A stretch of DNA of 64,000 nucleotides, taken from NCBI GenBank assembly GCA_020726405.1, contig DYSB01000001.1, positions 7,440 to 71,439 of the forward strand, given 5' to 3'. Positions 7,732 to 27,177 of this stretch are shown one piece after another. Under the pieces are notes generated by a model. That model ran no database searches. It was not told the origin of the DNA and saw nothing but the letters and a program-made list of their open reading frames with translations. The number at the start of each line of letters is the position of its first letter. The stretch's first letter is position 1. The position numbers and the translations under genes are program-made. Source of the stretch: Acetofilamentum sp. (GTDB lineage Bacteria > CAIWAD01).

Positions 7732-7824
7732 GGTCCCCAGCCTTTCTGTTTGACCGGAGTGACGTGCGCCAGGACGTCATCTCCTTGTCGCGGAATGATT
7801 TCGGTCCTTCAGGACCTCCGCGAG

Positions 7825-7899
7825 TGGGCGACACGGGATTTGAACCTGTGACCTCTTGCGTGTCGAGCAAGCGCTCTAACCAACTGAGCTAGCCGCCCC
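7825..7899 (-). tRNA. tRNA-Val (anticodon GAC)
   Basis: Reverse complement reads GGGCGGCUAGCUCAGUUGGUUAGAGCGCUUGCUCGACACGCAAGAGGUCACAGGUUCAAAUCCCGUGUCGCCCA. 7-bp acceptor stem, D arm GCUC/GAGC, anticodon stem CUUGC/GCAAG with loop UCGACAC (GAC), T loop UUCAAAU. One A-C mismatch in the T stem. CCA not encoded. Confidence 0.85.
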
Positions 7900-8193: not shown

Positions 8194-9618
8194 CTACCTC
8201 CCGGCGCCGCGCAGCACCGTGCGCACCGTATAGAGCAAAATGCGCAAGTCCAGGCCCAGGCTCATGTTCTCCAGGTAGAACAGGTCCAGGCTGAGCTTGT
8301 CCTCCAGCCGGGTCAGGCTCTGGTCGTAGCGCTGGCGCACCTGGGCCCAGCCCGTCAGGCCGGGTCGGACGTTGTGGCGGCGGGCGTAGAGCGGCCAGCG
8401 GCGGATGTATTCGTCCACCAGCGCCTTCTGCTCCGGGCGTGGCCCCACCAGCGACATCTGCCCGCGCAGCACGTTCCAGACCTGGGGCCACTCGTCCACC
8501 CGGTAGCGGCGCAGCACGCGGCCCAGCGGCGTCAGGCGCGGATCATGCTCGGTCACCGGGGGCGGGGCGCCGCTCTCCAGGGTCGCGACGGTGTCGGCGT
8601 GCAGCATGGCCACGTGTTCGGCCGGGTGCAGGGTGCGGAACTTGAGCAGCGTGAACTCCCGCCCGCCGCGCCCCACCCGGCGCTGGCGGAAGAGGGCGGG
8701 CGCCCCCGGGCTCTGCCAGTGGATCAGCGGCGGCAGGATGAGCAGCAGCGGCAGGCCGGCCAGCCCCAGCAGCAGGCCCGCGCCCAGATCCAGCCCGCGT
8801 TTGAGCAGGAACTGCCAGGGCGCCATCAGGTGCGGGAAGACCTGGATGACCGGCATGCCCCAGATGTCGAAGGCCTTGAGGTTGCCCAGCACCAAGTCGT
8901 AGAGGTCGGGCACGATGAGCACGTCGGCGCCCTGGCGCGTGGCACGCTGGATCACTTCGAAGAGCAGCTCGCGCTCGGGCTCCGTGACCACCACTTCCAC
9001 CACCTGGCGCTCGCGGATCAGCGGCTCCAGCTCGTCCAGGCCACCATCGGCGGCGGACAGGCCGGCGACCTCGCCCTGCCCGGGCGGCCGCACGCGGGCC
9101 ACCACGCGGTAACCCATCCCGGGATGGAGGCGGAACTGCTCCAGCAGCTGGCGGGCCCGCTCGCCGGAGCCCACCACCAAAGTGGCGCGCTGCCCCAGCC
9201 CGCGCTCCAGCAGGCGCTTCTGCACGGTGCGGAACAGCACGCGGCCGGTGCCCGCCCCCGCCGCCAACACCAGGCCGTAGCTAAGCAGCAGCAGGCGCGA
9301 GGCCGAGAGCGCCGGGCGGCCCGGCTCCAGCGTGATCACGAAGAGCAGGATCAGGCCCACCAGCACGGAGGCCGCCACCTCCTGCACGGCGCGGTAGCGG
9401 CTGACGTGGTAGAGCTTGCGGTACTGCCCGCGCAGGGCGAAGATCGCCAGCCAGAACAGGCTGAGCACCAGGTAGGCGGCCAGAGGTAGTTGGAAGGGCT
9501 CGGGCTCCGTGAACAGGCCCGAGCGGAAGCGCAGAAACCAGGTGAGCCAAGTGGAAGCCCAGATGCTGGCGAAGTCCACCACCACCAGGAACAGCCGTTC
9601 CCAGGACAGGCGTCTCAC
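8194..9618 (-). CDS. undecaprenyl-phosphate sugar phosphotransferase (WbaP/EpsB-like initiating EPS transferase)
   Basis: 474 aa with N-terminal TM helices and a C-terminal bacterial sugar-transferase domain (LVGPRPEQKALVDEYIRRWPLYARRHNVRPGLTGWAQV). Confidence 0.85.
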   Translation of the reverse strand: MRRLSWERLFLVVVDFASIWASTWLTWFLRFRSGLFTEPEPFQLPLAAYLVLSLFWLAIFALRGQYRKLYHVSRYRAVQEVAASVLVGLILLFVITLEPGRPALSASRLLLLSYGLVLAAGAGTGRVLFRTVQKRLLERGLGQRATLVVGSGERARQLLEQFRLHPGMGYRVVARVRPPGQGEVAGLSAADGGLDELEPLIRERQVVEVVVTEPERELLFEVIQRATRQGADVLIVPDLYDLVLGNLKAFDIWGMPVIQVFPHLMAPWQFLLKRGLDLGAGLLLGLAGLPLLLILPPLIHWQSPGAPALFRQRRVGRGGREFTLLKFRTLHPAEHVAMLHADTVATLESGAPPPVTEHDPRLTPLGRVLRRYRVDEWPQVWNVLRGQMSLVGPRPEQKALVDEYIRRWPLYARRHNVRPGLTGWAQVRQRYDQSLTRLEDKLSLDLFYLENMSLGLDLRILLYTVRTVLRGAGR

Positions 9619-9636: not shown

Positions 9637-11280
9637 TCAGATACTGCGCGCCACCAGCACAACGGTCATGATCTGGGAGGCAACCAGCAGGCCTTCCTTG
9701 AACTTCTCCCAGGCGGTGAGATCCTCCCGCGGCACCAACATCAGGGCGTCGCCGGCGGCCATTACAGTTCCCAGGGAGGCAGGGCTGAACTGGTCCTCCC
9801 CCACGTGGCGCAGGCGCAGCTCGTTGAGCCGCGCGCCACGCAGCTTGCCGCCCGCGGCTTTCAGGTAGTCGCGGACCGTCCACCCATCCCGCCAAGCCTG
9901 GACACCCGGATGCTTGACGGCGCCCAGCACCTCCACGTCGTCGGAGCGGCGCAGCACGCGGACTTCGTCGCCGTCGGCCAGAATCAGGTGCGCGGCGTCC
10001 AGGCGTCCATTCTCGTAGACCACCGACACCCTGCCGCCCTCCTGGATGACGCGGGCCTTGAGGTATTCCCGTTCGAAGCGCGAGATGTCGCTCCCCGCAC
10101 TTCGCAGCTCCGCGAAGTTCCTCTCCAAGTCCATCTCCGGCCGGCGGGTGACCTTGATGGCCATGAGCGCGGCAGACTGGCTGTCCGGCTGGGCCCACTC
10201 CAGCAATTCCGCCAACGTCGTCTGACCCGGATTGATCGCGTAGGGCCCGGGCCGCAGCACGCGTCCGTTGATGGTCACCTGTTTGGACATGTCCTGGAGG
10301 TTGTCCGCCCGCATGTAAAGGCGGTCGTAGGCTTGAATGCTGATGCCCCGGTACTCGGGGGACTGCTCACTGAAGCGCCAATTGCCGACGAAATTGCCGA
10401 AGGGATCGAAGCGCACCAGTTCGTACGCCACGCCCGTCAGGCCGATGCGCGGCCCGCCCAGAATCTCCACGATGTCCGCCGGCGTATCGCCCTCGCGGAA
10501 CTCCACTTCGTCCTGGCCTTGCCGGAAGGAGCCAAACACGCGGACGATGGAATTGCGGAAGCTGAACAGGATCCGGTCACCGCTCTCCAGCACCGGGTCC
10601 TGCTCCAGATCACCCGTGCGCAGGTATCTGAGCAGGTCCACGTGTAGAGCGCTGTCGCCGCGAACCACTTCCACGTTGCGGAAGGCCAGCGGCATTTCCT
10701 GGGCCAGGGCCGAGACCTGCTGCAGGGCGCCACTGGTGCTGGTGGAAGGCACCATCATTTGCTGAGCCGCCGCGCCACGGAAGTTGGGCAGCCAAGTGGG
10801 CGGCTTGAGCACCGTGTGCAGGCGCGTGGTGTAATTCAACTCCAGAAACCGGGGCACCAGGTCGGCGCCGCTCACCGTCACCTGGATGCGGCGGGGGCGA
10901 GCCACCCACACATCCACGGAGTCGCACCCGTACATGATGGCCAGGCGCGGTCCCAGCCTGCGACGCAGTTCCAGCAGACTCAGTCCGGCCACAGACACGC
11001 GGCCCAGACCTGGCAGTTCCAGCCGGCCGTCCGTGTCCACCAAGTCTTCCTTGCGGTTCAGATCCACGTTGAAGGCCAGATGCCCCACCAGGTCGCCGGG
11101 ACCGAGGATGTACTCCGCCGGGTCCACGGGCTGGTCCAGGATCCAGTCCGCCATGGGGGTCGCCGTGGCGCCGGAGGCGGTGGTTGTTTTCTTGATCATG
11201 CCCAGATCGAACTGGGCGACGCCCGTTCCCACCCCGGCCAGCAGGGTCAGCAGCAGCCAGCAAACCGACATTCGCCTCAT
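9637..11280 (-). CDS. polysaccharide export outer-membrane protein (Wza-like, SLBB domains)
   Basis: Signal peptide MRRMSVCWLLLTLLAGVGTGVA starts at the internal ATG (11280), whose ATGA overlaps the stop of the upstream gene. PGDLV and ILGGPRIGLTGV-type soluble-ligand-binding beta-grasp repeats typical of Wza/KpsD-family exporters. Confidence 0.8.
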   Translation of the reverse strand: MRRMSVCWLLLTLLAGVGTGVAQFDLGMIKKTTTASGATATPMADWILDQPVDPAEYILGPGDLVGHLAFNVDLNRKEDLVDTDGRLELPGLGRVSVAGLSLLELRRRLGPRLAIMYGCDSVDVWVARPRRIQVTVSGADLVPRFLELNYTTRLHTVLKPPTWLPNFRGAAAQQMMVPSTSTSGALQQVSALAQEMPLAFRNVEVVRGDSALHVDLLRYLRTGDLEQDPVLESGDRILFSFRNSIVRVFGSFRQGQDEVEFREGDTPADIVEILGGPRIGLTGVAYELVRFDPFGNFVGNWRFSEQSPEYRGISIQAYDRLYMRADNLQDMSKQVTINGRVLRPGPYAINPGQTTLAELLEWAQPDSQSAALMAIKVTRRPEMDLERNFAELRSAGSDISRFEREYLKARVIQEGGRVSVVYENGRLDAAHLILADGDEVRVLRRSDDVEVLGAVKHPGVQAWRDGWTVRDYLKAAGGKLRGARLNELRLRHVGEDQFSPASLGTVMAAGDALMLVPREDLTAWEKFKEGLLVASQIMTVVLVARSI

Positions 11281-12275
11281 CGTGTCCCGTCCTCCATTCG
11301 TCGGTGCAGGCCGCCCGTCCAGGCCTTGTTGTCGGAGTACCAATCCAGGGTGCGGGCCAGTCCGTCCTCAAAATCGACGCGCGGGCGCCAGCCTAGTTCG
11401 CGTTCCAGTTTCGTGGCGTCGATGGCGTAGCGCAGGTCATGGCCCGGCCGGTCGCCCACGAAGCGGATCAGGCTCTCGGGCTTGCCCAGCTTGCGCAGCA
11501 GCAACCTGACGATCTCGATGTTCCGCCACTCGTTGTTGCCGCCCACGTTGTAGACGGCGCCATCCGCCGCGCGGGTGAAGACGGTCCAGAGCGCCTCCGC
11601 GTGGTCCTCCACGTAGAGCCAGTCGCGCACGTTGAGGCCCCGGCCGTAGACGGGCAGTTCCTCGTCGCGCGTGGCCTTCCAGATCATCAGCGGAATCAGC
11701 TTCTCGGGAAACTGGTAGGGCCCGTAATTGTTGCTGCAGCGCGTGAGCACGGCCTCCACGCCGAAGGTGCGGCGCCAGGCCTGGAGAAGCAGATCGCCCG
11801 CCGCTTTGCTGGCGCTGTAAGGACTGGAGGGCGCAAGCTGCGTCTCTTCCGTGAAGCGCCCGCCGCCCTCGCCCAGGTCGCCGTAGACCTCGTCCGTGGA
11901 CACCTGCAGGAGGCGCAGGCGCCGGCCCCGGGCCTGCTGGGCTCGCAGGCCGTCCAGCAGCACACGCAGCCCCAGGATGTTGGTGCGCAGGAAGACGTCG
12001 GGATCGTCGATGCTGCGGTCCACATGGCTCTCGGCCGCGAAGTTGATCAGGCCGTCCACGCGCTCCAGCAGGGAATTCACCAGCCTTAAGTCCAGGATGT
12101 CCCCGTGGACGAACTCGTAGCCTTCCCGGCCCTCCAGCTCCGCCAGACTCGCGCGGCAGCCGGCGTAGGTCAACGCGTCCAGGTTGACGACGGCGTGCTC
12201 CGGGTGTCGCGCCCGCAGCCAGCGGATGAAGTTGCAGCCGATGAATCCCGCCCCGCCGGTGACCAGCAGCCTCAT
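11277..12275 (-). CDS. rfbB: dTDP-glucose 4,6-dehydratase
   Basis: MRLLVTGGAGFIGCNF Rossmann start (internal ATG at 12275). YSASKA catalytic motif and NNYGPYQFPEKLIP are typical of RfbB. Confidence 0.85.
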   Translation of the reverse strand: MRLLVTGGAGFIGCNFIRWLRARHPEHAVVNLDALTYAGCRASLAELEGREGYEFVHGDILDLRLVNSLLERVDGLINFAAESHVDRSIDDPDVFLRTNILGLRVLLDGLRAQQARGRRLRLLQVSTDEVYGDLGEGGGRFTEETQLAPSSPYSASKAAGDLLLQAWRRTFGVEAVLTRCSNNYGPYQFPEKLIPLMIWKATRDEELPVYGRGLNVRDWLYVEDHAEALWTVFTRAADGAVYNVGGNNEWRNIEIVRLLLRKLGKPESLIRFVGDRPGHDLRYAIDATKLERELGWRPRVDFEDGLARTLDWYSDNKAWTGGLHRRMEDGTR

Positions 12276-12472: not shown

Positions 12473-14251
12473 CTAGACCCGCGCCCGGCGGCTCTCCAGG
12501 TAGAGGGCCACGATCAGCACCAGCAGCGCCGTGCCGGCCATCACGGGCCAGGCCAGCAGATCCTGGAAGCGGCCGATGGCCAGGCTGATGCGGCCCATCA
12601 CCGTGTAGCCGAAACTGGCGCCGAAACTCATCATCAGGAAGGCGATGCCCACCTTGGAGACCACGCCCAGCGCGCCCGTGTGCTTCTTGGAGAAGAAGAA
12701 ATAGAACACGCCCGCGCAGACGCCGATCACCACCAGCAGGTTGGAAAAGATCTCCACCAGCATGTTCACGCGCATCTGGGTGGGGCTGCCCGTCACGCCG
12801 TAGGGTTCGAGGAACCCCGCCGGATCCCGGCGGAAAGCGTCCAGTTGGAGCCGCGTGTAGGGCGTCACCCGGTCCGGGCTGGTGTGCAGCGCGATGGTGT
12901 GCCGCAGCCAGCCCTGGCGCAGCAGACGCAGCTCGCGCAACACGCCCGCGCGCCAGTAACTCAGGAAGGCCGCATCGGCCGCCCGCCGGGCGGAATCCGG
13001 CAGCCCGGCGAAGATCGCCAGCTGGGCCTGCAGTTCGGACCGGTACCCGCCGTCCAGCGGGGCCAGCCGCGCCAGCAGGTTCCGCACCTGCTCGGCCTTC
13101 CATTCACCCAGCAGCACGGGCCGCGGATTGACTTCACTCAAGAGCGAGTCCGCCAGCCGACGCGTGACGGGCAGGCTCCAATCGGGCTGGCGTTCCGCGG
13201 GAAAGCCCTCGCTCTTCAGCAGCTGAACCAGGGGCGGACGGCCCGCCGGGAAGGCCAAGGCCTCCGCGGCGACAGCCGGCGCCAAGTCGAGGTAGCGGCC
13301 GCAGGCCTCCAGCAAACCCGCGCGGCCGGCGGGCGACTCCAGCCAGACGCGCGTGGCCACGAGGACCAGCCGGTCCTGCCAGGGCGCCAGCTCCGTTGTG
13401 GGCAGCTGGCCCGGAGCGGGCAGGCTCTCCTCCACGGGCATGCCGCCCAGCCCAGCGCAGAGCAGGCGCTCGAACTCCGCGTCCGCGCCCACCACCGCGG
13501 CTTGGCCCACGCGCATGGCCTTGAAACCCTCGCGCACCCGGGACTCCGGGGCTTCGATGTCGCTCAGACCCGCCAGCCCGTTGAGGCGCTGCTCCAGCTC
13601 CCCTTGCCAGGCCAGTCCGGCAGCGGCGGCGCGGCTGGAATCCTCCCCCAGCGCTTGCAGCCAGTCGGCGATCCAGTCCACCTGGGCCTGGCGACGCGCG
13701 CCCATTTCCCCTTGCGGCAGCACGCCCGCCGACTCCATGGCCGTCACCACCGTCTCCTTGCCGGAGAAGTCCTTCATGGTGGCTTCCAACTGCGGCACCA
13801 GCGCGCCCTGGGCGGCCTGGATGATCTGGATCCCGGCGAAAGCGCCGATCACGTAGGCCAGCGGCCAGCGGCTCAGCCAGTGCAGTTTGCGGCTGATTTT
13901 GAACAGCATCAGGATGCCCAGAGCCAGGAAGACGTAGTAGATGAACTGCCCGTGGGCTAGCCGCTCCAGCAGGCTGACGGGGTGGTCCGGGTAGGCCTCG
14001 GGCGCCAGTTGGCCCGCGCGGAAGAGCTGCTGGCGCACCGCGTCCACGGGCGGCAGCAGGCGGTTGATCAGATTGGGCCGGAGGATCTGGAACCAGACCA
14101 GCACCACGCCGTAGCCCGTGGAGACGCCCACGAAGACGTGCTCGGCGAACTTGTAGAAGGGGTTGTCCTGGTAGAGGAAGCTGAAGATCATCAGCGTCGA
14201 GAAACAGACCAGGAAGGCCCCCAGGACCTCCACGGAGAAGAGCGCGCCCAT
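12473..14251 (-). CDS. uncharacterised integral membrane protein (592 aa); TM helices at both ends, long Ala/Leu/Arg-rich helical middle
   Basis: Hydrophobic N-terminus (MGALFSVEVLGAFLVCFSTLMIFSF..., VFVGVSTGYGVVLVWF). ~350-aa hydrophilic helical region. 3-4 C-terminal TM segments (LVVIGVCAGVFYFFF, IAFLMMSFGASFGY, AGTALLVLIVALYL). Start at 14251 shares a nucleotide with the stop of the upstream gene. No family recognised. Confidence 0.65.
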   Translation of the reverse strand: MGALFSVEVLGAFLVCFSTLMIFSFLYQDNPFYKFAEHVFVGVSTGYGVVLVWFQILRPNLINRLLPPVDAVRQQLFRAGQLAPEAYPDHPVSLLERLAHGQFIYYVFLALGILMLFKISRKLHWLSRWPLAYVIGAFAGIQIIQAAQGALVPQLEATMKDFSGKETVVTAMESAGVLPQGEMGARRQAQVDWIADWLQALGEDSSRAAAAGLAWQGELEQRLNGLAGLSDIEAPESRVREGFKAMRVGQAAVVGADAEFERLLCAGLGGMPVEESLPAPGQLPTTELAPWQDRLVLVATRVWLESPAGRAGLLEACGRYLDLAPAVAAEALAFPAGRPPLVQLLKSEGFPAERQPDWSLPVTRRLADSLLSEVNPRPVLLGEWKAEQVRNLLARLAPLDGGYRSELQAQLAIFAGLPDSARRAADAAFLSYWRAGVLRELRLLRQGWLRHTIALHTSPDRVTPYTRLQLDAFRRDPAGFLEPYGVTGSPTQMRVNMLVEIFSNLLVVIGVCAGVFYFFFSKKHTGALGVVSKVGIAFLMMSFGASFGYTVMGRISLAIGRFQDLLAWPVMAGTALLVLIVALYLESRRARV

Positions 14252-15105
14252 CAGTTTCTCCTCCCGCGGGTCATGAAGTAGGCCACGTTGCCCAGGGCGA
14301 TGAAGGCGATGATCAGCAGGTGCCCGAAACTCTGGGCGTCCATGCCGCGCGTGGCCAGCCCGGGCACGCCCACCAGCTGCTCATAGTCCGCGCTGCCTTT
14401 CATGCCGCCCGCCAGTCCGGCGAGCTGGCCGGCCTCGTAGTAGGGGATGTTGTCCGGCGCCATCACGGCCGTGCAGGCGGCCACCATCTTCAGCCCGAAG
14501 CGGCCCTGGGCCGTCTCCACCCACTCCTTGGTGCCCGGGCTGCCGCCCGAGACGTTCACGAACAGGTCGCTGTCCCCCAGTTTGCGCAGGCTCTGCATCA
14601 GCGAGATTTGTGACACGGGCGTGCCGTCGTAGCTCTGCGGAAACGTGGCGTGGATGTTCTCGCCCATCCCCAGCATGGCCAGCTGGCGGCCGTCCTTGTA
14701 GCCCAGGTTGACGTAGTCGATTTTCTCCCGCAGCCCCAGTGGCTTGACCTCTTCCGCCTGCAGGGCCTGCTCGATGGCCTGGTTGACCAGCGGCGGTGCG
14801 CCGGCCCACAGGCAGCTCACCACCACTTTCAACTTGCGGCGGAAGATGTGGCGGAACAGCGCTTCGGTAAAGGGCTGCAGCTCGGGTTTGGAGCCTGGAT
14901 CGTAATCGCACGAGACCAGCACCACGCTGCCCTCGTCCAGGTCCTCGATGGCCTGGTAGAGGTTCTCCACCGCGGGATCCGTGCTGAACGGCAGACCGAA
15001 GGGCACGATCAGCGGCGTGAGGATGCAGAGCGCCATCAAGAGGAAAATCCAGCGCCGGTCCAGGGCCAGGAAACGCTGCAGGCCGCGCAGGAGGGCGTTC
15101 ATCAC
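14251..15105 (-). CDS. uncharacterised membrane-anchored protein (284 aa)
   Basis: N-terminal TM (WIFLLMALCILTPLIV) and C-terminal TM (LLIIAFIALGNVAYFM) flank a ~200-aa hydrophilic domain. ATGA-type overlap with the next gene at 15102-15105. Confidence 0.65.
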   Translation of the reverse strand: MMNALLRGLQRFLALDRRWIFLLMALCILTPLIVPFGLPFSTDPAVENLYQAIEDLDEGSVVLVSCDYDPGSKPELQPFTEALFRHIFRRKLKVVVSCLWAGAPPLVNQAIEQALQAEEVKPLGLREKIDYVNLGYKDGRQLAMLGMGENIHATFPQSYDGTPVSQISLMQSLRKLGDSDLFVNVSGGSPGTKEWVETAQGRFGLKMVAACTAVMAPDNIPYYEAGQLAGLAGGMKGSADYEQLVGVPGLATRGMDAQSFGHLLIIAFIALGNVAYFMTRGRRN

Positions 15106-15722
15106 TCACCTCCCAGGTAGCTGCGCTCCAGACCCAGGATCACGCGCAGACCGGTGGAGATGGCCCCCAGCGAAGCGCCGATCATGATCGCCCGCTTGCC
15201 CGCCAGGTTGGGGAAATTCATGATCCAGTCGCTGATGCCCGGCAGCCCGCTCCAGATCTTCTCCCCCACCGGGATGCGCCCGATCATCACCAGCGTGGCG
15301 CAGCCCAGCAGCAGCGTGGCCTCCAGGCTGCGGGCCCGGAAGGCGCGGAAGGCCGCGCTGGCGATGTAAAAGGCCAACAGGCTGAACATGGTGGCCTGGA
15401 GCGGCACGTAGAGATTCAGGTAGAGCCAATTGAAGGGCGAGCCCTCGGCGATGCCGCGCCAGAAGCCCAGCCCCACCATCAGGGCCAGGGCGGCCAGCAG
15501 GGCGAGCTTGGGCACGACGTCCTGGCCGCGCTTGATCCGGGCCACGTTCACCGAGACGATGCTATAGATGCCCAGCACGTAGGTGAAGGCCATGATCACG
15601 ATGCCGCCGTTGGTGATGGCCTCCTTGGTGGTGCTGACCCAGGGAATTCCCGTCAGGAAATTCTCCAGGATCATCCAGGTGCCCAGCAGGAAGGCGATGA
15701 TCAGCGGGATTTCTTTTTTCAT
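15102..15722 (-). CDS. uncharacterised polytopic membrane protein (206 aa, ~6 TM)
   Basis: MKKEIPLIIAFLLGTWMILENF... with repeated hydrophobic stretches throughout; translationally coupled to both neighbours. Confidence 0.65.
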   Translation of the reverse strand: MKKEIPLIIAFLLGTWMILENFLTGIPWVSTTKEAITNGGIVIMAFTYVLGIYSIVSVNVARIKRGQDVVPKLALLAALALMVGLGFWRGIAEGSPFNWLYLNLYVPLQATMFSLLAFYIASAAFRAFRARSLEATLLLGCATLVMIGRIPVGEKIWSGLPGISDWIMNFPNLAGKRAIMIGASLGAISTGLRVILGLERSYLGGE

Positions 15723-15764
15723 GTCGGTGTGGACTCCTCGGCGCTGCGGGCGCGGTTGCCGGGC

Positions 15765-16598
15765 CTATTGGATCAGGAACCAGTCCCGGAAGCGCCCGGC
15801 GCCCTCCAGCCAGCCCAGGGAGTCCAGGGTGACCAAGAGGGAGCCCAGCAGCATCACGGCGATGCAGACGATCTTGTACCAGTCCGTGGCCTTGAGATTG
15901 GAGAGCAGCTTGGGGTCGCGGCTCAGGTAGGCCGAGGCGGCGAACAGCTCCTCGCCGATCAGCGTGTAGTCGCAGGCCGCGATGAAGAAGGGCAGTTGGG
16001 TGACCTCAGCCGTCCCCGCCACCTGGATGGCCTTGGCCTCGAAGCCCGTCTCCGAGAGGATCAGCGACTCGGCGAAGAAGCGCCCCAGCAGCAGGTTGGC
16101 GGCGGGGCGCTCGCGCAGCATGATGCCGTTGACGCCCGCCGTGTAGGCGAACTGCTCATCCGAGATGAAACTGATGTTGCCCGGCTTGTGGTCTTCCGGC
16201 ACGCCGGCGTTGTAGAAGCCCTGGCGCACCATCTCTTCGGCCACGCTCATGACGAACGGAATGCGGCAGGGCACGAAGATCTCGGTCTTGTAGCGGGCCG
16301 CTGTCTCGGCCACCTTCCCCAGGATCAGCATCGAGGCGATGGTCTGAATGTCCTGCATGTCCTCGATGCCCGGCACGTAGAGGATGGGCCGGCCCATCTC
16401 CGTGCAGCGGCCCACGGCCTCCTCGATGGCGTCGATGCCCGCGATGCGCCGGATGAACAGGGAGCCGGGATCGCGCTTGATCCGCTGGTAGAAGTAGAAG
16501 AGCAGGACCACCATCAGCACGATGGTGCAGAAGACCGTGATCTGCCCGGCGCTGAGTGTGAGCGACCCCAGGGCGACCTGGGCAAGGGAGACCGGCAT
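15765..16598 (-). CDS. uncharacterised membrane-anchored protein (278 aa)
   Basis: Track ORF 15765..16991 runs through tRNA-Ser, so it is trimmed to the internal ATG at 16598. MPVSLAQVALGSLTLSAGQITVFCTIVLMVVLLFYFY (TM), a soluble middle, and C-terminal TM IVCIAVMLLGSLLVTL. Confidence 0.6.
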   Translation of the reverse strand: MPVSLAQVALGSLTLSAGQITVFCTIVLMVVLLFYFYQRIKRDPGSLFIRRIAGIDAIEEAVGRCTEMGRPILYVPGIEDMQDIQTIASMLILGKVAETAARYKTEIFVPCRIPFVMSVAEEMVRQGFYNAGVPEDHKPGNISFISDEQFAYTAGVNGIMLRERPAANLLLGRFFAESLILSETGFEAKAIQVAGTAEVTQLPFFIAACDYTLIGEELFAASAYLSRDPKLLSNLKATDWYKIVCIAVMLLGSLLVTLDSLGWLEGAGRFRDWFLIQ

Positions 16599-16761: not shown

Positions 16762-16793
16762 CGGAAACAACAAGCCCCGCCAGGGCGGGGCTT
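16762..16793 (-). terminator. intrinsic terminator 3' of tRNA-Ser
   Basis: GCCCCGC / GCGGGGC 7-bp GC stem with 4-nt loop at 16774-16791. On the minus strand it is followed by UUGUUGUUUCC. Confidence 0.55.
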
Positions 16794-16797
16794 GCGA

Positions 16798-16888
16798 CGG
16801 AGGAGGTGGGATTCGAACCCACGGTGCACAGTTAAGCACACAACGGATTTCGAGTCCGTCCGATTCAACCACTCTCGCACTCCTCCGG
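16798..16888 (-). tRNA. tRNA-Ser (anticodon CGA)
   Basis: Reverse complement: GGAGGAGUGCGAGAGUGGUUGAAUCGGACGGACUCGAAAUCCGUUGUGUGCUUAACUGUGCACCGUGGGUUCGAAUCCCACCUCCUCCG. Anticodon stem ACGGA/UCCGU with loop CUCGAAA, long variable arm, T arm GUGGG-UUCGAAU-CCCAC, 7-bp acceptor stem plus G discriminator. Confidence 0.85.
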
Positions 16889-17567: not shown

Positions 17568-18060
17568 GGAGCACCTCCGGTTGTTCACGTGTCCTGGCCA
17601 GGCGGGCTTCCGCCCGGCGCTCCCGAAAAAACCCGCGTAGCAGCTCGCCGCACTCGAGCTCGCGCACGCCGCCCAGCAGTTCCACCCGGTGGTTCAGCTC
17701 CGATCGTTGGACCACGTTGTGGACGCTGCCGCAGGCCCCGGCCTTGGGATCCCAGGCGCCGAACACCACCAGCGGAATCCGCGCCAGCACGATGGCGCCG
17801 CCGCACATGGTGCAGGGCTCCAGCGTGACATAGAGCGTGCAGGCCTCCAGGCGCCAGGAACCCAACTGATTGGCCGCGGCGGTGATGGCCAGCACTTCGG
17901 CGTGCGCCGTGGGATCCTGCAGGCTCTCCGTGCGATTGTGGCCGCGGCCGATTACCTGACCTTGGTGGACGATCACGGCGCCCACGGGCACCTCGCCCAG
18001 TTCGGCCGCCCGGCGAGCCTCGCGCAGGGCCATGTCCAGAAAGAGCTCGTGTGGATTCAC
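17539..18060 (-). CDS. tadA: tRNA-specific adenosine deaminase
   Basis: CDA-fold zinc motifs HAEVLAI and PCTMCGGAI; 173 aa. Confidence 0.9.
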
Positions 18061-18656
18061 CGCGGCTTCCGGCGCTCTTCCGGCAATTCCGCACGATGCA
18101 GCCAGCCGCTGGTCCCAGCGGGGCTCTTCACCTGCAGGAAGCCCTGGCGGCTCTCCGGGGCCAGCACCGTCAGAACCTGGCGCCCGGGCAGCACCTGGTG
18201 TTCGCCCAGCAGATCCTGCTGCGAATAGAGCAGCGCTCCGGCCAGGCTCAGGGTGTCGCCGGCCACCGGCGGTCGGCAGGCCAGGCCCCGGGCCAGCTCG
18301 GCGGGCAGCGCCACGACGCGGCCGCCCGTCCCGCTCGCCCGGACTTCCAGCTCGCTACGGTAAACCCAGACGCGCCGCCGGGGCTGGGTGTCCAGCGCTT
18401 CCAGCTCCAAGTGGTAAAACCCGCCCTGGACCCCCAGCACCTTGGCCTTGCGGTCCTGCTTGAGGGATTGGGAGGAGTCCGCGAAGGACGGGGCCAGGAA
18501 GACCCGGGTGGGAGCCAGGGTGATGGTCTCGCCCGTCTGCAGAGGCGCGCGGCCGCCGACGGGGAGGTGATCCGGCAGCAGGACTTGGGCGCCGGCCGTC
18601 CCCAGCGCCAGCAATAGGTTCATGAGCAGGTGCAAGAGCAGGATGCGTGCGTACAT
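18057..18656 (-). CDS. hypothetical secreted protein
   Basis: Signal peptide MYARILLLHLLMNLLLALGTAGAQV starts at the internal ATG (18656). No family recognised. Lies between tadA and pilD on the same strand. Confidence 0.55.
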   Translation of the reverse strand: MYARILLLHLLMNLLLALGTAGAQVLLPDHLPVGGRAPLQTGETITLAPTRVFLAPSFADSSQSLKQDRKAKVLGVQGGFYHLELEALDTQPRRRVWVYRSELEVRASGTGGRVVALPAELARGLACRPPVAGDTLSLAGALLYSQQDLLGEHQVLPGRQVLTVLAPESRQGFLQVKSPAGTSGWLHRAELPEERRKPR

Positions 18657-18744
18657 GGTCGACCTTTCGTTGGGGATCCCGGGCGGGCTCAAGGTACGCA
18701 GCCCGGCAGGCCTCCGCCAGCGCCGTTGCGCACCGGCGGACCCG

Positions 18745-19545
18745 TTACAGGCCCAGGGCCCAGTCCAGATAGGCTCGGATCCACTCCGGCCCCTGCAGCA
18801 GGGCCAGCCAGCTGCCCAGAGTCAGCCAGGGGCCGAAGGCCAGCTCCACGCCGCGCCGTTTGAGCAGCAGGCCCCCGATGCTGCCGCCCAGCGCGGCCAG
18901 GAAGATGGCCAGCAGCGTGGACTGCCAGCCCAGCAGCAGGCCCAGCGCGGCCATCAGTTTCACATCGCCGGCGCCCATGCCTTCACGCTTGAAGAGCAGC
19001 CAGCCCAGCCAGGCGAAACCCCAGAGCAGACCGCCCCCCGCCAGAACTCCCAGGAGCGCGTCCGGCAGGGCAGGCAGGCGGCTCTCAGCGCCAGCCAGGC
19101 CGCTGGCGCTGAGGATCAGGCCCAGTCCGCCCAGCGCGCCCAGGGTCGCGGTCAGCGGGTTGGGCAGGCGGCGACAGTCCAAGTCGATCACCGCCAAGGC
19201 CACCAGCAGCGCCAGGGCCGGCAGCCAGACCAGCCAGGACCAGCCCAGCGGCACGCGCCAGGCCACGCTGAGGGCCGTGAGCGCCGTCAACAGCTCCACC
19301 AGCGGATAGCGGACGGGAATCCGCCAGCCGCAACCCGCGCAGCGTCCGCGCAGGCCCAGCCAACTCAGAACGGGCACGTTCTCCCAGGGCCGGATCCGCC
19401 GGCCGCAGGACGGACACGAGGATCCCGGCCGCACCAGGCTCAGGCCCTGGGGCACGCGGTGGATCAGCACGTTGTTGAAACTGCCCAGCGCCAGCCCCAG
19501 CAGAAGGGCCAGCCACCAGGGCGTCCAGAGAACGAGGGTCTCCAT
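18745..19545 (-). CDS. pilD: prepilin peptidase (A24 family)
   Basis: N-terminal CxxC...CxxC zinc-finger pairs (SCPSCGRR, CAGCGW), polytopic membrane body, GMGAGDVKLMAALGLLLGW. Confidence 0.92.
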   Translation of the reverse strand: METLVLWTPWWLALLLGLALGSFNNVLIHRVPQGLSLVRPGSSCPSCGRRIRPWENVPVLSWLGLRGRCAGCGWRIPVRYPLVELLTALTALSVAWRVPLGWSWLVWLPALALLVALAVIDLDCRRLPNPLTATLGALGGLGLILSASGLAGAESRLPALPDALLGVLAGGGLLWGFAWLGWLLFKREGMGAGDVKLMAALGLLLGWQSTLLAIFLAALGGSIGGLLLKRRGVELAFGPWLTLGSWLALLQGPEWIRAYLDWALGL

Positions 19546-19718
19546 CCTGTCTCCTCACGTGACGGTGTCGGGCCGGCTGTGGCGCCGCATGCTCCAACTC
19601 TCCGGCCGGCCGCTCGGGTCAAATCTCCGGCAGCCCGGGGCCCAATCCCACCTCCCCGCGCGCCAAAGAAAAGGGGCCGGAGCACGCTCCGACCCCTGGT
19701 CGTCGTCGTGCGCGGGGC

Positions 19719-20966
19719 TTAGTAGCCCAACTGCTGCACGGCCTGGCCAAACTCGAAGACCGGCAGGTAAATCACAATCACGATGGTGGCGATGACCACA
19801 CCGATGCCGATGATCATCATGGGTTCGATCAAGCTGGTCAAGCGCGTGATCACCGATTCCACCTGCTTCTGGTAGAACTCCGCCGCCTTCTTGAGCAGCG
19901 TGTCCAGCTCGCCTGTCTCCTCACCCGTCTGGGTGAGCTGGATCAGGGTGGGCGGGAAGATGCTGGTCTTGATCATGGCGTTGGAGAGCGAGTAGCCGTC
20001 CTTCAGCATCTCCTGCAGGTCGCCCACACCGCGGGAGACCACGGCGTTGCCCACCACGCCCTGCACCAGCTTCAGCGCCTCGGTCACCGTGACGCCCGAG
20101 CCGAACAGGATGCCCAGGGTCTTGGCATACTTGTTCATCACACTGTCGTGGATCAAGCCGCCAAAGACCGGCATCCTGAGCAGCATCTGATCCAGCGCCA
20201 ATTCGCCGCGATCCGTCAGGGTCAGCACCCAGAGCCAGAACGCGATGAACAGGATGCCGAAGACCGAAATGAAGAAGTTCTGCGCGATGATGTCGGAGAG
20301 CGTCACCATCAGGCGCGTGGGAGCGGGCAGCGTTGCCCCCAGCTGGGTGTAGATGTCCGTGAACTGGGGAATGATCTTCCAGAGCAGGATGAACACCACC
20401 ACCAGCAGGAAGCCGAACATGAAGATCGGGTAGTACATGGCGCCCTTGACTTCCTGGCGCGTGTCCTCCACGGTCTCCAGGTAGTCCGCCAGATCCTGCA
20501 GCACGGTGTGCAGCGAGCCCGACACCTCGCCGGCCTTGGTCAGCGCGACGTAGAGGCTGTTGAAGTGATAGGGGTAGTGGGCCATGGCGTCGGAGAGCTG
20601 CAGGCCCTGCTTGATCTCCATGTGGACGCCCATCAGGGTGCGCTTGAACTTCTTGTTGCGCTCCTCCCGGGCCAGGTTGCCAATCGCCTTCTCCAGGGTC
20701 AGGCCGGCGGAGAACATGGTGGAGAGCTGGCGCGTGAAGAAGACCATGACCTTGAGCGGCACGTGGTTCTTCAGGCTCTCCATGGCCGCGTTGATCTTGT
20801 CCAGCACGGTCACGCGCTGCACCTGATCGGCCTTGACCTCTTTGAGCTGGATCAAGGTGCCCTGGTTCTTCACCACCTCCAGGGCGGCGTCGAAATTGGC
20901 GGCCGTCAGCGAGGATTCCACCCGCTGCCCGGCGGCATTGCGAATCACATAATTGAATTTCGGCAT
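19719..20966 (-). CDS. pilC: type IV pilus inner-membrane platform protein
   Basis: 415 aa GspF-family protein with two repeated cytoplasmic domains plus 3 TM. Confidence 0.93.
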   Translation of the reverse strand: MPKFNYVIRNAAGQRVESSLTAANFDAALEVVKNQGTLIQLKEVKADQVQRVTVLDKINAAMESLKNHVPLKVMVFFTRQLSTMFSAGLTLEKAIGNLAREERNKKFKRTLMGVHMEIKQGLQLSDAMAHYPYHFNSLYVALTKAGEVSGSLHTVLQDLADYLETVEDTRQEVKGAMYYPIFMFGFLLVVVFILLWKIIPQFTDIYTQLGATLPAPTRLMVTLSDIIAQNFFISVFGILFIAFWLWVLTLTDRGELALDQMLLRMPVFGGLIHDSVMNKYAKTLGILFGSGVTVTEALKLVQGVVGNAVVSRGVGDLQEMLKDGYSLSNAMIKTSIFPPTLIQLTQTGEETGELDTLLKKAAEFYQKQVESVITRLTSLIEPMMIIGIGVVIATIVIVIYLPVFEFGQAVQQLGY

Positions 20967-20976
20967 TCAGACCTTC

Positions 20977-22677
20977 CTAGAAGTCTTCCACCGTGGCACG
21001 CTTCACTTCCGCCAGCGTCGTGATTCCATTCATGGCTCGGCTCAGGCCCGCGTAGCGCAGGGAGATCATGCCGTGTTCCTTGATGGCCACTTCGCGGATG
21101 CGCTCCTGGCTGGCATTGTCATAGATCAGCTTGCGGATGTCCTGCCGCACTTCCAGCACCTCGAAGATGCCGGTCCGGCCGCGATAGCCGGAATTGCGGC
21201 AATGCGGACAACCCTTGCCGGCGTAGATCGCCTTGCCCGTGAACTTGTCCGGATCCTCGTGGATGGCCAGCCAATCCTCGGGTGTGGAGATCTTCTCCTC
21301 TTTGCAGTGGGCGCAGATCCGGCGCACGAGGCGCTGGGCCATCACCAGGTTCAGGCAGCTGCCCACCAGGAAGGGCGGAACGCCCAGGTCGATGTAACGC
21401 GTGATGGTGGAGGGCGCGTCGTTGGCGTGCAGGGTGGTGAAGACCAGGTGGCCGGTCAAAGCGAACTTGATCGCGATGTCCGCCGTCTCCTGGTCGCGAA
21501 TTTCACCGATCAGCAGGGTGTCCGGGTCCTGACGCAGGATGGAGCGCAGCGAGGCGGCGAAGGTCAGGCCGATCTTCTCCCGCACTTGCACCTGGCTGAT
21601 GCCCTCCACCTGATACTCCACCGGGTCTTCCACCGTGGTGATGTTCGAGGTGATGGAACGCACCTCGCTCAGCGCGGCGTAGAGGGTGGTGGACTTGCCC
21701 GAGCCCGTCGGGCCGGAGATGATCACCATGCCGTAAGGCTGGGTGATCCAGTGGCTGAATTTGACGTGGTCGTCGTCGTTGAAACCCAAGTTGCGCAGGC
21801 TGAACATGAAGCCCGACTTGTCCAACAATCGCAGCACCACCTTCTCGCCGAAGACCGTGGGCAGGATGCTCACGCGGACGTCCACCAGGCGGTCCTGGGT
21901 CTTGATGGAGAGGCGGCCGTCCTGGGTCAAGCGCCGTTCGGCGATGTTGAGCTTGGAGATGATCTTGATGCGGCTGACGATGCCCGCATGGCTGCTGATG
22001 GGAATGCTCATGGCCTCCATCAACACGCCGTCGATGCGGTAGCGGATGCGCAGCACGTTTTCCTGGGGCTCCACGTGGATGTCCGTGGCGCGCTCCTGGA
22101 TGGCCTGGGTGAACATCTGGTTCACCAGGCGCACCACCGGGCTGTCCGCCAGGTCGCGCTCGACTTCCAGCCCGCCTTCCTTGTCGTCCGCGTCGGGATC
22201 GGCCACGAACTCCATCTTCGAGATGGTGTCATGGATTTCCGTCGAGCGCCGGATCTTGGTGTAGAGCCGGTCCACGGCTTCGTCGATGGTGCGTTCGCCG
22301 CCCAGCCGGGCCTGGATGGGCATGGTCACCGAGCGCTTGAGGCCGTCCAGCACCACCAGGTCGTCGGTGTCGGCCATGGCCACCACCAGCAGGCCGTTCT
22401 CGATGCAGATGGGCACCGCGCGATTGGCCTTGGCGAACTCCTCGCTGACCTTGATCAGCGCGTCGTCGTCCGCCAGCAGGATGCGCTCCGAGGAGACCCA
22501 GTCCACGCCCAACTGCTCGGCCAGGCCTTCCACCAACTGGTCCTCGCTGAGCAGGTTCAGGTCCAGCATGACCTGACCGATGCGCTTGCCCATGTAATTC
22601 TGGCTGATGGCTTGCCGGACCTGATCCTGGGTGACGTACCCCTTGCGGACCAGGATTTCGCCGATCTTTTCAAACAT
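20977..22677 (-). CDS. pilB: type IV pilus assembly ATPase
   Basis: 566 aa GspE-family: Walker A GPTGSGKSTT, Asp box, His box, tetracysteine CAHC...CPHC. Confidence 0.95.
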   Translation of the reverse strand: MFEKIGEILVRKGYVTQDQVRQAISQNYMGKRIGQVMLDLNLLSEDQLVEGLAEQLGVDWVSSERILLADDDALIKVSEEFAKANRAVPICIENGLLVVAMADTDDLVVLDGLKRSVTMPIQARLGGERTIDEAVDRLYTKIRRSTEIHDTISKMEFVADPDADDKEGGLEVERDLADSPVVRLVNQMFTQAIQERATDIHVEPQENVLRIRYRIDGVLMEAMSIPISSHAGIVSRIKIISKLNIAERRLTQDGRLSIKTQDRLVDVRVSILPTVFGEKVVLRLLDKSGFMFSLRNLGFNDDDHVKFSHWITQPYGMVIISGPTGSGKSTTLYAALSEVRSITSNITTVEDPVEYQVEGISQVQVREKIGLTFAASLRSILRQDPDTLLIGEIRDQETADIAIKFALTGHLVFTTLHANDAPSTITRYIDLGVPPFLVGSCLNLVMAQRLVRRICAHCKEEKISTPEDWLAIHEDPDKFTGKAIYAGKGCPHCRNSGYRGRTGIFEVLEVRQDIRKLIYDNASQERIREVAIKEHGMISLRYAGLSRAMNGITTLAEVKRATVEDF

Positions 22678-22711
22678 GCGGATTCATTCCAATGCTAGAA
22701 ATCGTGAAGCG

Positions 22712-22750
22712 TGATGAAAACGGCGGGGGCCCACCCGGTGGACCCCCGCC
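22712..22750 (-). terminator. strong hairpin plus U-tract between the Ig-domain lipoprotein gene and pilB (intra-locus attenuator/terminator)
   Basis: GGCGGGGG-C-CCAC...GTGG-A-CCCCCGCC at 22722-22750. On the minus strand it is followed by GUUUUCAUCACGCUUCACGAUUUCU; ~40 nt upstream of the pilB start. Confidence 0.5.
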
Positions 22751-22759
22751 GGAACTGCA

Positions 22760-25717: not shown

Positions 25718-25728
25718 CGTGGCACTCC

Positions 25729-27177
25729 TTACTTGTCGTTATCCATGATCAGGTCGTCCAGGCGCAGTTCGTCCTCGACCTCCTGGATGTTGGCCGGCAG
25801 CGGCTCGGTCCAGGTGCCTTCGGGCATGAGGATGTGCGGGGTGATCTGGATGACCAGGTCAGTCTTCGAGATGCGCTCCTCGTTGGAGCGGAACAGGCCG
25901 CCAAGGAAGGGCAGCTTGGAGAGAATGGGCATGCGATAGACCACGCGGGTCTTCTGGGTCTCCAGCAGGCCGGCGATGATGATGGACTCGCTGTCCTTCA
26001 CGCGTACCGTGGTGGTCGCCGTCCGGCGCTTGACCTGGGGGATGTCGGCGTTGACGCCCTTCCAGTCCACGATGGAACTGACTTCCGGGGAGACCTCGGT
26101 GGTGATCCAGCCTTCAGGGTTGATATGGGGCAGGATGCTCAGCTTGATGCCGACTTCCTGCTCCTTGACCGTGATCTGCTGGGTCTGGCCGCCGGCGTTG
26201 AACACGTAGCTGACCACGTCCACCACACTGATGTTGGCGGGGCGGTTGTTCAGGGTGGCCACGCGGCTGGCCGCCAGAACGCTGGCCTTGTTGTTGCGCA
26301 GCATGAAGTTCAGTGTGACGTCGAAGGCGGTCATCTGGCGGCTGAAGTGGCCGATGTTGTCCAGGTCCAGCGGCTGGAAGGGCGCCGTCTGGGGCAGGGA
26401 GCCCTGCGGGATCTGGATCTCATTCATCCACAGCCAGGGGCCGCCGGCGTTGTTCTTCCAGCCCTGGTTGGAGGTCGGATTCCCCCAATCGTCCGGGATC
26501 ATCCAGTCCTGCCGGACGGTCCCGTTCTCGGCCAGGATGTTGGTGATCTTGTTCAGCTTGCCCCAGTCCACGCCCATCAGTTCCTGGTCGCCCACGACCA
26601 CTTCGATGAGCTTGGCCTCAAGCATCACCTGGGGCGCCGGGCGGTCCACCCGGGCGACCACGTCGCGCACTTCCTCGAGCACCTTGGTGGAGGTGCGCAG
26701 GATCAGCGCGTTGCCGCTGGTGTCCACCTGGGCCAGCTTGGTCATGTCCTGGACCATCTTCAGCACTTCACTGGCCGAGACGTAGTTCAGCGGGATCACG
26801 TAGCTGTTGAGGCCCACCTGGGTCTGGATCTTGGCGGGATCGGCCACCAGGAAGCTGTTGCCCACTTTTTCGTAGGAAAGACCCGCCGCGCGCACCACCA
26901 GGTCCAGGGCTTCCTGAACCGGCGTGTCTTTGATGTGCAGCGAGATGCGGCCGAAGTCGTTCTCCTTTTCCTGGCTGAGCTCGGAGCCGGTGACAATGTT
27001 GTAGCCTGACTGGCGCGCCAGAATGGCCAGAATGTCCGCCAGATTGGCATCCTGGGCGTCAATGCTGACCCGGTTGTCCAGACTGGGAGTGACGGCCAGG
27101 GCCGTCGGCGCGAGCCAGCACGAGGATGCCAGCAGGATGCCTCCGCAGCAGATGGAAAGGAGGGATCGTTTGGTCAT
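25729..27177 (-). CDS. pilQ: type IV pilus secretin (short form)
   Basis: 482 aa. Signal MTKRSLLSICCGGILLASSCWLAPTALA, secretin-N domains, and a C-terminal secretin core (VVYRMPILSKLPFLGGLFRSNEERISKTDLVIQITPHIL). Confidence 0.88.
   Translation of the reverse strand: MTKRSLLSICCGGILLASSCWLAPTALAVTPSLDNRVSIDAQDANLADILAILARQSGYNIVTGSELSQEKENDFGRISLHIKDTPVQEALDLVVRAAGLSYEKVGNSFLVADPAKIQTQVGLNSYVIPLNYVSASEVLKMVQDMTKLAQVDTSGNALILRTSTKVLEEVRDVVARVDRPAPQVMLEAKLIEVVVGDQELMGVDWGKLNKITNILAENGTVRQDWMIPDDWGNPTSNQGWKNNAGGPWLWMNEIQIPQGSLPQTAPFQPLDLDNIGHFSRQMTAFDVTLNFMLRNNKASVLAASRVATLNNRPANISVVDVVSYVFNAGGQTQQITVKEQEVGIKLSILPHINPEGWITTEVSPEVSSIVDWKGVNADIPQVKRRTATTTVRVKDSESIIIAGLLETQKTRVVYRMPILSKLPFLGGLFRSNEERISKTDLVIQITPHILMPEGTWTEPLPANIQEVEDELRLDDLIMDNDK

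Follow-up and report, generated by a model that had tools for sequence, protein, structure and literature searches.

A block of seven consecutive minus-strand genes was analysed in a stretch of 64,000 nucleotides (nt) from contig DYSB01000001.1 of Acetofilamentum sp. (assembly GCA_020726405.1), the whole of which is referred to as the window. The first four genes of the block encode membrane proteins, designated P4, P3, P2, and P1 in the order of transcription and together termed the cassette, and the last three encode an RfbB-type dehydratase, a Wza-like exporter (OPX protein), and a WbaP-like polyprenyl-phosphate glycosylphosphotransferase (PGT). The original prediction, made from the nucleotide sequence, described four consecutive and coupled minus-strand open reading frames (ORFs) upstream of rfbB, Wza-like, and WbaP-like genes, and this layout was confirmed, with a P4 protein of 277 amino acids (aa) and TGATG overlaps at gene junctions. 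It offered two interpretations, i.e., that the four proteins supply polysaccharide assembly or export functions in an unfamiliar form, or that they constitute an unrelated envelope complex hitch-hiking in the operon; overall, this interpretation is partly supported by the analysis described here.

The four genes are translationally coupled and have been inherited together, in constant order, in many phyla, and outside the Delongbacteria lineage the cassette has no general linkage to polysaccharide genes. With moderate confidence, the four genes are proposed to encode one hetero-oligomeric inner-membrane complex, which would be an independent, ancient module that is not specific for polysaccharides and probably acts as a transporter or transducer.

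Conservation of the cassette and its partners

Loci were surveyed in one genome per species of the Genome Taxonomy Database (GTDB), which yielded at least 583 loci, and the best-scoring 80 of these, all in metagenome-assembled genomes (MAGs), were examined. They represent Myxococcota lineages, Zixibacteria, Eisenbacteria, Fermentibacteria, Aegiribacteria, Ignavibacteria, Coatesbacteria, Rifleibacterium, and others, and their neighbourhoods were counted with a crude ORF caller backed by tblastn. The complete cassette was detected by tblastn in the identical order P4-P3-P2-P1 in 72 of the 73 loci with enough downstream sequence, establishing the four genes as a conserved unit, and start and stop codons within the cassette abut or overlap in the window as well as in its relatives. 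Co-occurrence with wza and wbaP, which the original prediction had raised as a question, was encountered only in a subclade of the Delongbacteria; elsewhere, no rfbB or wbaP homologue was present within 10 kb of the cassette in any of the 80 loci, and a Wza-like gene was seen near it once, as a weak match of 24%.

Tandem cassettes of two or three copies are present in 14 of the 80 loci. The DUF6754 copies (the P4 family, see below) within one tandem locus are only 50-65% identical, and the cassette subfamilies therefore appear to be ancient. Three copies were recorded in L008, L010, L020, L072, and L078, and two in L007, L030, L038, L040, L041, L048, L053, L054, L056, and L061 (survey locus numbers); such tandems occur in loci of the Zixibacteria, Ignavibacteria, and Coatesbacteria type.

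In most phyla a trio of genes lies directly upstream of the cassette, encoding in this order a small transmembrane (TM) protein (~130 aa), a GlmL/MutL-like ASKHA ATPase (~610 aa), and a 375-aa protein (for example L022:6281-9687, L011:6274-9640, and L004:5918-9130). The ATPase and/or the 375-aa protein accompany the cassette in 57 of the 80 loci, and in 33 of the 44 loci of at least 18 kb, and this link persists through local rearrangements. The ATPase itself is linked to the cassette in 53 of the 80 loci; it matches PF13941 at 5.6e-128 and stays below the GlmL equivalog cutoffs (224 bits versus 475). The N-terminus of the 375-aa protein matched RnfC_N in 18 of 31 members (best 4.9e-8), NQRA_N in 9 of 31 (best 1.5e-5), and Biotin_lipoyl in 22 of 31, and is described as an RnfC_N/NqrA_N-like barrel-sandwich domain; the protein is otherwise unannotated, its C-terminus is KOW-like, and a profile search of PDB sequences gave nothing credible. 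No B12-dependent mutase was recognized among the recurrent neighbours of the cassette. In the 64-kb window, tblastn with up to 40 members of each family detected neither the GlmL-like ATPase nor the barrel-sandwich protein nor two small TM proteins.

Other neighbours are typical of particular lineages. In about 20 of the 80 loci, of the Eisenbacteria/Fermentibacteria type, gcvT-H-PA-PB are located upstream, and lplA or a gene for a TonB-dependent receptor downstream. The complete seven-gene system (trio and cassette) is situated between gcvT-gcvH-gcvPA-gcvPB and genes for lipoate-protein ligase or a TonB-dependent receptor in L011, L014, L018, L022, L039, L059, L060, L071, and L075, which are Eisenbacteria, Fermentibacteria, and Aegiribacteria-type loci. 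Rfam models did not detect a glycine riboswitch upstream of gcvT in L011, L014, L022, and L039. Ignavibacteria loci carry PtsI and PGI/PMI genes upstream and NTP_transferase and MetK genes downstream; in L065:6972-14900, L070:7032-15300, and L073 the order is PtsI (enzyme I-like of the phosphotransferase system), a bifunctional PGI/PMI-type SIS protein, the cassette, NTP_transferase, and MetK, and the stop codon of the PGI/PMI-type gene overlaps the DUF6754 start. NTP_transferase and MetK genes also follow the cassette in L055 and L077. A general sugar-nucleotide theme was considered and not adopted, given that NTP_transferase was found downstream in only 4 of the 80 loci and PGI/PMI upstream in only 3.

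Predicted architecture of the four proteins

Topologies were assigned by a hydropathy scan and the positive-inside rule, complemented by AlphaFold2 models of P4 and P2. As originally described, all four proteins contain TM helices, with approximately six in P3 and one at each end of P4 and P2, in agreement with hydropathy and with both models. The description of the proteins as belonging to no recognizable family stands for P1, P2, and P3, for which no match was obtained in Pfam, NCBIfam, PADLOC, PHROGs, or the PDB, but not for P4, which is a full-length member of the Pfam family DUF6754 (PF20539; E-value 1.8e-102, 342.3 bits versus a gathering threshold of 27, profile positions 10-249 of 257). 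PADLOC and PHROGs had no match for any of the four proteins, giving no sign of a defence or phage origin, and profile searches of PDB sequences with all four families found nothing credible. Neither P2 and P4, in spite of their shared layout (see below), nor P3 and P1 were found to be related by hhalign.

P4 is the most conserved of the four subunits. The DUF6754 family comprises at least 8000 homologue clusters, identity between phyla amounts to 55-60%, and 46 positions are invariant among 101 sequences. The P4 model (pLDDT 85) consists of a TM helix, a five- to six-stranded alpha/beta domain, and a second TM helix, and its charge distribution (positive-inside) suggests that the domain faces the cytoplasm. 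Many homologues have a longer N-terminal extension, and two of these are named FN3-domain proteins by NCBI. P2, with approximately 2000 homologue clusters, follows the same plan of a generic Rossmann-like domain between two TM helices; its model (pLDDT 93) contains a six-stranded alpha/beta domain that, by the positive-inside rule, would face the periplasm. No Pfam or NCBIfam family matched P2, FMN_bind included, and Foldseek comparison of its model with the whole PDB returned no match at E <= 1e-3. The GxGxxG phosphate-binding loop that follows the first beta strand in RCK/KTN nucleotide-binding domains was not found.

P3 and P1 are polytopic. The N- and C-termini of P3 are both predicted to be inside, and its family (6445 homologue clusters) is uniform in size, at 205-207 aa in nearly all of the 120 members listed; a protein identical to P3 is carried by a Candidatus Delongbacteria MAG (NCBI). 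No meaningful Pfam or NCBIfam match was obtained for P3. When 35 members each of the P3 and P1 families were scanned singly against Pfam at E <= 5, scattered hydrophobic noise was obtained in both cases (e.g., TMD0_ABC in 10 of 35 P3 members and DUF3704 in 8 of 35 P1 members). The single PDB-sequence match of P3 (E = 0.003), to a designed coiled-coil protein, is not credible, and for P1 no match was found in Pfam (E <= 1), NCBIfam, or the PDB. P3 and P1 both have conserved polar residues within the membrane or close to it, and no Cys is found among their invariant columns.

P1 of the window was originally described as N-terminal TM helices, a hydrophilic region of ~350 aa, and C-terminal TM helices, a topology said to resemble that of polysaccharide co-polymerases (PCPs). 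The layout holds, with 4 + 3 TM helices by hydropathy, whereas the PCP-like region proved to be a clade-specific insertion. P1 proteins typically measure ~200-270 aa with ~6 TM helices (a ~210-aa family); among the 1668 clusters of the family at 50% identity, alignment with P1 is limited to residues ~4-165 and 495-590, and the long form is found in five clusters. All 34 aligned homologues of other phyla lack the insertion, which occurs in the 559-649-aa P1 forms of the Delongbacteria subclade; the extra C-terminal TM helix is likewise clade-specific. The insertion is rich in Ala (14.5%), Leu (14.2%), Arg (9.2%), Gly (8.7%), and Pro (7.2%). Its sequence can be aligned within the subclade, where invariant residues (LGG, PWQ, DSL, and several Trp and Arg) are spread over it, and it therefore seems to form a folded domain. 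With seven TM helices, the three short loops rich in Lys and Arg (SRKLHWLSRW, FFSKKHTG, and the RRAR tail) would all lie on the same side of the membrane, and the insertion, located between TM4 and TM5, is therefore placed on the opposite side and would lie in the periplasm.

Conservation was compared between the predicted membrane sides. The cytoplasmic P1 loops DNPFYKFAEH (DNPxYKxxEH) and FFSKKHTG (FFSKxHxG) have mean conservation values of 0.87 and 0.88, and the cytoplasmic domain of P4 has a mean of 0.79, with 83 of 201 positions at least 95% conserved. The segment of P3 from TM4 to TM5 scores ~0.75, the periplasmic domain of P2 0.64, the periplasmic loop of P1 0.19, and the P1 insertion 0.05. 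These values suggest a working surface that is conserved on the cytoplasmic side, made up of the P4 domain and the invariant P1 loops, and a variable periplasmic side to which lineage-specific elements, such as FN3 domains on P4 and insertions in P1, may have been added.

Polysaccharide genes in the Delongbacteria lineage

The downstream gene identities given in the original prediction were upheld, for rfbB and the WbaP-like gene by matches above cutoffs and for the Wza-like gene by weaker domain matches. RfbB scored 454.5 bits with TIGR01181 (cutoff 365), and the WbaP-like PGT contains Bac_transf (2.4e-54) and CoA_binding_3 domains and scored 360.9 bits with TIGR03025 (cutoff 295.6). In the OPX protein, Poly_export (8.9e-9, 35.9 bits versus 28), SLBB (6e-9, 36 versus 27), and SLBB_2 (1e-9, 38.8 versus 27) are just above the Pfam thresholds, and all NCBIfam matches are far below their cutoffs; judged by its combination of Poly_export and SLBB domains, this protein is a divergent member of the Wza/OPX family. 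As originally noted, no Wzx, Wzy, PCP, or glycosyltransferase gene was present in the precomputed Pfam calls for ~18 kb around the genes.

Five subclade genomes encode DUF6754 or P3 proteins ~75-100% identical to those of the window, namely L081 (the window sequence), L085, L087, L089/L090, and L093. The cassette, rfbB, and the OPX and PGT genes are contiguous in all five, and all five have the long P1 (592-648 aa), while the block is embedded in four distinct pairs of flanks; an RND-pump context upstream is common to three. The spacing from P1 to rfbB is 197 nt in L081, 2 nt in L085, -4 nt (an overlap) in L087, 54 nt in L089/L090, and 12 nt in L093. Identities between the window and L085, L087, L089, and L093 are 67-73% for RfbB and 59-63% for the PGT versus 36-39% for the OPX protein, which is thus far more divergent than its neighbours, and the exporter therefore seems to evolve unusually fast.

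In the deeper Delongbacteria lineage L091/L092, a short P1 (238 aa) is followed by an rfbB-like gene without OPX or PGT genes, and the adjacency of rfbB is therefore lineage-wide. In L088, the nearest outgroup, P1 measures 253 aa and polysaccharide genes are lacking. One subclade is the only lineage sampled in which both the P1 insertion and the adjacent OPX and PGT genes are seen, and their joint appearance is most simply regarded as one evolutionary event.

Gene calls and surroundings

The coordinates of the genes and other features are collected in Table 1. The P3/P2 and P2/P1 junctions share one base each (TGATG) and are preceded closely by a GGAGG-type Shine-Dalgarno motif, and a 42-nt spacer with GAGGAG separates P4 from P3. 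The mechanically called P4 ORF reaches position 16991 (408 aa) and overlaps tRNA-Ser; because of this overlap, and because homologues measure 277 aa, the ATG given in Table 1 was taken as the start. The longest P4 ORF (15765-16991) and a 426-aa antisense ORF within P1 (plus strand, 12680-13960) are considered artefacts of the high GC content (~67% in the window) that could mislead automated gene calling. The exact P4 product of 277 aa was encountered only on contigs no longer than 50 kb, although a 427-kb contig carries an identical P3.

Table 1. Features of the cassette and its surroundings (positions in the window; aa, amino acids).
Feature	Position	Strand	Remarks
P4	15765-16598	minus	277 aa, DUF6754, start ATG at 16598
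P3	15102-15722	minus	206 aa, polytopic membrane protein
P2	14251-15102/15105	minus	283/284 aa, bitopic
P1	12473-14251	minus	592 aa, polytopic with insertion
P1 insertion, clade-specific	12761-13798	minus	~346 aa, residues ~152-497; predicted
rfbB, dTDP-glucose 4,6-dehydratase	11277-12275	minus	TIGR01181; 197 nt downstream of P1
Wza-like OPX protein, divergent	9637-11280	minus	Poly_export, SLBB, SLBB_2
WbaP-like PGT	8194-9618	minus	TIGR03025, Bac_transf, CoA_binding_3
tRNA-Ser(CGA)	16796-16887	minus	ARAGORN, Rfam; upstream boundary of the cassette transcription unit
Terminator-like hairpin after tRNA-Ser	16774-16786		terminator scan and sequence; upstream of P4
tRNA-Val(GAC)	7824-7898	minus	ARAGORN, Rfam; downstream boundary of the seven-gene block
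Unannotated 199-aa gene (called in L081)	18057-18692	minus	between prepilin peptidase and TadA genes

The promoter and terminator scan remained at background level except for the hairpin after tRNA-Ser. The two tRNAs were all that Rfam recognized in the window, and 14 related loci gave no match; these searches thus provided no riboswitch and no clue to a ligand. Beyond tRNA-Val, downstream of the PGT gene, the next gene encodes threonyl-tRNA synthetase (ThrRS). On the 5' side of tRNA-Ser lie genes for YbjQ, TadA, the 199-aa protein, a prepilin peptidase, and E/F-type components of a type II secretion system (T2SS); the 199-aa hypothetical protein is conserved and has no Pfam or NCBIfam match. 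The type II secretion or type IV pilus-like genes upstream of the cassette extend over 18745-27177 (minus strand) and encode an A24 prepilin peptidase, T2SS-F, T2SS-E with an MshEN domain, a 985-aa Big_1-domain protein, and a secretin. Proteins with Por_Secre_tail domains (cargo of the type IX secretion system, T9SS) are encoded nearby in the window relatives L089-L093.

A proposed membrane complex and its alternatives

In the proposed complex, P3 and P1 would form the membrane core, with the P4 domain on the cytoplasmic and the P2 domain on the periplasmic side, and the four predicted subunits would assemble physically. Such a complex would most likely move a substrate, or pass energy or a signal, across the cytoplasmic membrane, a role suggested by the contrast between the conserved cytoplasmic working surface and the variable periplasmic side. 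In loci that also encode the GlmL-like ATPase, this enzyme would probably drive or regulate the process. In the Delongbacteria lineage the cassette would have come to lie beside rfbB, and in one subclade P1 would have gained the ~350-aa periplasmic insertion and a TM helix while the block was extended by the OPX and PGT genes. Such a polysaccharide neighbourhood could reflect plain operon hitch-hiking or a lineage-specific co-option; the latter is possible, given that the seven genes stay together in differing surroundings and that P1 carries the insertion where the OPX and PGT genes have arrived. The second interpretation in the original prediction, that of an unrelated envelope complex hitch-hiking in the operon, is the better supported of the two, in view of the constant gene order in nearly all testable loci and the lack of rfbB or wbaP next to cassettes of other phyla.

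Several observations weigh against this proposal. The physical assembly of the four proteins is inferred, and their domains were assigned to membrane sides by a crude hydropathy scan combined with the positive-inside rule. The words transporter or transducer describe an architecture only, because no substrate, cofactor motif, or riboswitch was found (the latter by Rfam, in the window and 14 related loci). Neither the GlmL-like ATPase nor its partners are encoded in the 64-kb window, and 11 of the 44 long loci lack them within 10 kb of the cassette; for this organism the energy source therefore stays a proposal. Moreover, all Delongbacteria-lineage loci with enough downstream sequence have rfbB after the cassette, the genes being 2 nt apart or overlapping by 4 nt in two genomes, and an NDP-sugar pyrophosphorylase gene lies directly downstream of the cassette in four loci outside the Delongbacteria. 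Some tie of the cassette to sugar-nucleotide or glycan metabolism may therefore exist.

These last observations are among those that favour the alternative in which the four proteins perform non-canonical flippase, polymerase, and co-polymerase steps together with the downstream PGT and OPX protein. This alternative, for which the close junctions of P1 and rfbB in L085 and L087, the contiguity of the block in five genomes despite four distinct flank pairs, and the absence of Wzx, Wzy, PCP, and glycosyltransferase genes within ~10 kb also speak, is regarded as unlikely. The periplasmic P1 insertion appears together with the OPX and PGT genes, L091 having the short P1 and rfbB only, but this co-appearance probably represents a single event, and the missing Wzx, Wzy, and glycosyltransferase genes may lie elsewhere in the genome. 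NTP_transferase genes after the cassette in four other loci, and PGI/PMI genes before the Ignavibacteria cassettes, would fit the alternative, whereas the 80 loci of other phyla yielded no rfbB or wbaP and one weak Wza-like match. In 35 members each of the P1 and P3 families, no Wzz, Wzx, or Wzy family match was obtained even at E <= 5, both proteins have ~6 TM helices and not 10-14, and the PCP-like region of P1 is absent from more than 99% of its family. Wzx and Wzy proteins are usually very divergent, and the strong conservation of DUF6754 between phyla is unlike that of serotype-variable assembly proteins. As a general role, assembly or export of polysaccharide in an unfamiliar form, the first interpretation in the original prediction, is thus not supported, given the lack of any Wzz, Wzx, or Wzy signature and of rfbB or wbaP near the cassette in the survey. 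A co-polymerase identity for P1 was rejected in particular, as it fails on the Wzz domain, on the number of TM helices, and on a hydrophilic region that is not family-wide.

Import of a small metabolite (e.g., glycine, lipoate, other amino-acid-related compounds, or a corrinoid) by a secondary or binding-domain-assisted transporter is quite improbable. GcvT or GcvH and LplA flank the system in ~20 of the 80 loci, but such neighbours are seen only in related candidate phyla and may be inherited synteny, and Rfam searches of the window and 14 related loci revealed no riboswitch for glycine, cobalamin, or any other ligand. Genes for a TonB-dependent receptor, ExbB, and TonB lie downstream in Fermentibacteria-type loci, characterized GlmL relatives serve B12-dependent amino-acid mutases (as named in NCBIfam NF040745 and NF040744), and the tandem, ancient paralogous cassettes would fit a diversification of substrate specificity. 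Against these points, no known transporter family or fold was detected, and conservation is concentrated on the cytoplasmic face and not in a periplasmic binding domain.

An ion-translocating or energy-converting complex laid out like Rnf or Nqr is very unlikely. It would equate the two ~200-aa, six-TM subunits with RnfA/E or NqrD/E, the bitopic periplasmic subunit with RnfG/NqrC, the TM-anchored cytoplasmic Rossmann-like subunit with NqrF, and the upstream 375-aa protein with a peripheral RnfC_N/NqrA_N-like protein. Subunit sizes and topologies are indeed parallel, P3 and P1 have conserved polar residues within or close to the membrane, and RnfC_N and NQRA_N matched 18 and 9 of 31 members of the 375-aa family; the barrel-sandwich domain is, however, a widespread module, as Biotin_lipoyl matched 22 of the 31, and these partner genes are absent from the window. 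PF02508 matched one of 35 P3 members (E = 0.066) and is not among the families listed for P1. The PDB holds Rnf and Nqr structures, and profile searches of its sequences with P1 and P3 found nothing. Invariant Cys residues for Fe-S clusters are lacking in P1 and P3, and no FMN_bind domain and no flavin or NAD motif was seen.

Finally, the chance that four unrelated or spurious ORFs lie side by side is negligible. The ~67% GC content does generate long antisense ORFs, such as the 426-aa example within P1, but all four proteins have hundreds to thousands of homologue clusters, and the fixed order in 72 of 73 loci, the confident models, and the coupling of start and stop codons refute this explanation.

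As an extension of the proposed complex, the cassette might be the membrane part of an unrecognized class of envelope machine, although this is held as a long shot. In this view, a GlmL-type ASKHA ATPase, and not an ABC, AAA+, or ion-motive motor, would power the conserved cytoplasmic face (the DUF6754 domain together with loops of P1 and P3), variable periplasmic modules would fit the machine to different tasks, and the 350-aa P1 insertion of the Delongbacteria subclade would serve as a co-polymerase-like adaptor to the OPX protein. If the ATPase link is functional, it could reveal a new way to power a membrane process.

A gene set that has been kept for so long, with ancient tandem paralogues, almost certainly has a central task at the cell envelope. 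Its spread covers the Zixibacteria, Eisenbacteria, Fermentibacteria, Ignavibacteria, Delongbacteria, Coatesbacteria, and Myxococcota, mostly uncultured lineages, and defining the cassette would fill a gap in the envelope biology of these lineages. Three of the four subunits have no entry in family databases and none resembles a solved structure. For annotation, the polysaccharide context applies to one lineage and should not be used for naming these proteins.

Comparison with known systems

Among systems of known function, PCPs (Wzz/Wzc) resemble the subclade P1 in that TM helices flank a large, helix-rich, and probably periplasmic region, encoded upstream of an OPX gene. P1 differs by its 4 + 3 TM helices versus 1 + 1 in PCPs and by the lack of a Wzz (PF02706) or GNVR (PF13807) match, also in 35 members of the P1 family at E <= 5, and the frequent Pro and Gly residues of its insertion would argue against a long coiled-coil hairpin. 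Wzx proteins (MOP superfamily) and Wzy proteins have 10-14 TM helices, compared with ~6-7 in P3 and P1, which do not match Polysacc_synt or O-antigen-ligase-type families. In comparison with Rnf and Na+-NQR, the linked barrel-sandwich protein is KOW-like at its C-terminus and lacks an Fe-S domain.

The literature searched contained no mention of DUF6754 or PF20539, and searches on PF13941, GlmL, and Delongbacteria yielded nothing relevant. DUF6754 is a Pfam family without an assigned function that covers P4 only, there being no models for the three partner families. The cassette-linked ATPase shares PF13941 with the GlmL/MutL accessory proteins (PF13941, NF040745), but it is ~150 aa longer and is encoded beside membrane proteins, without a recognized mutase neighbour. 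The cassette was not connected to any described system in sequence, structure, or literature searches, and it is rated as lying outside the known kinds.

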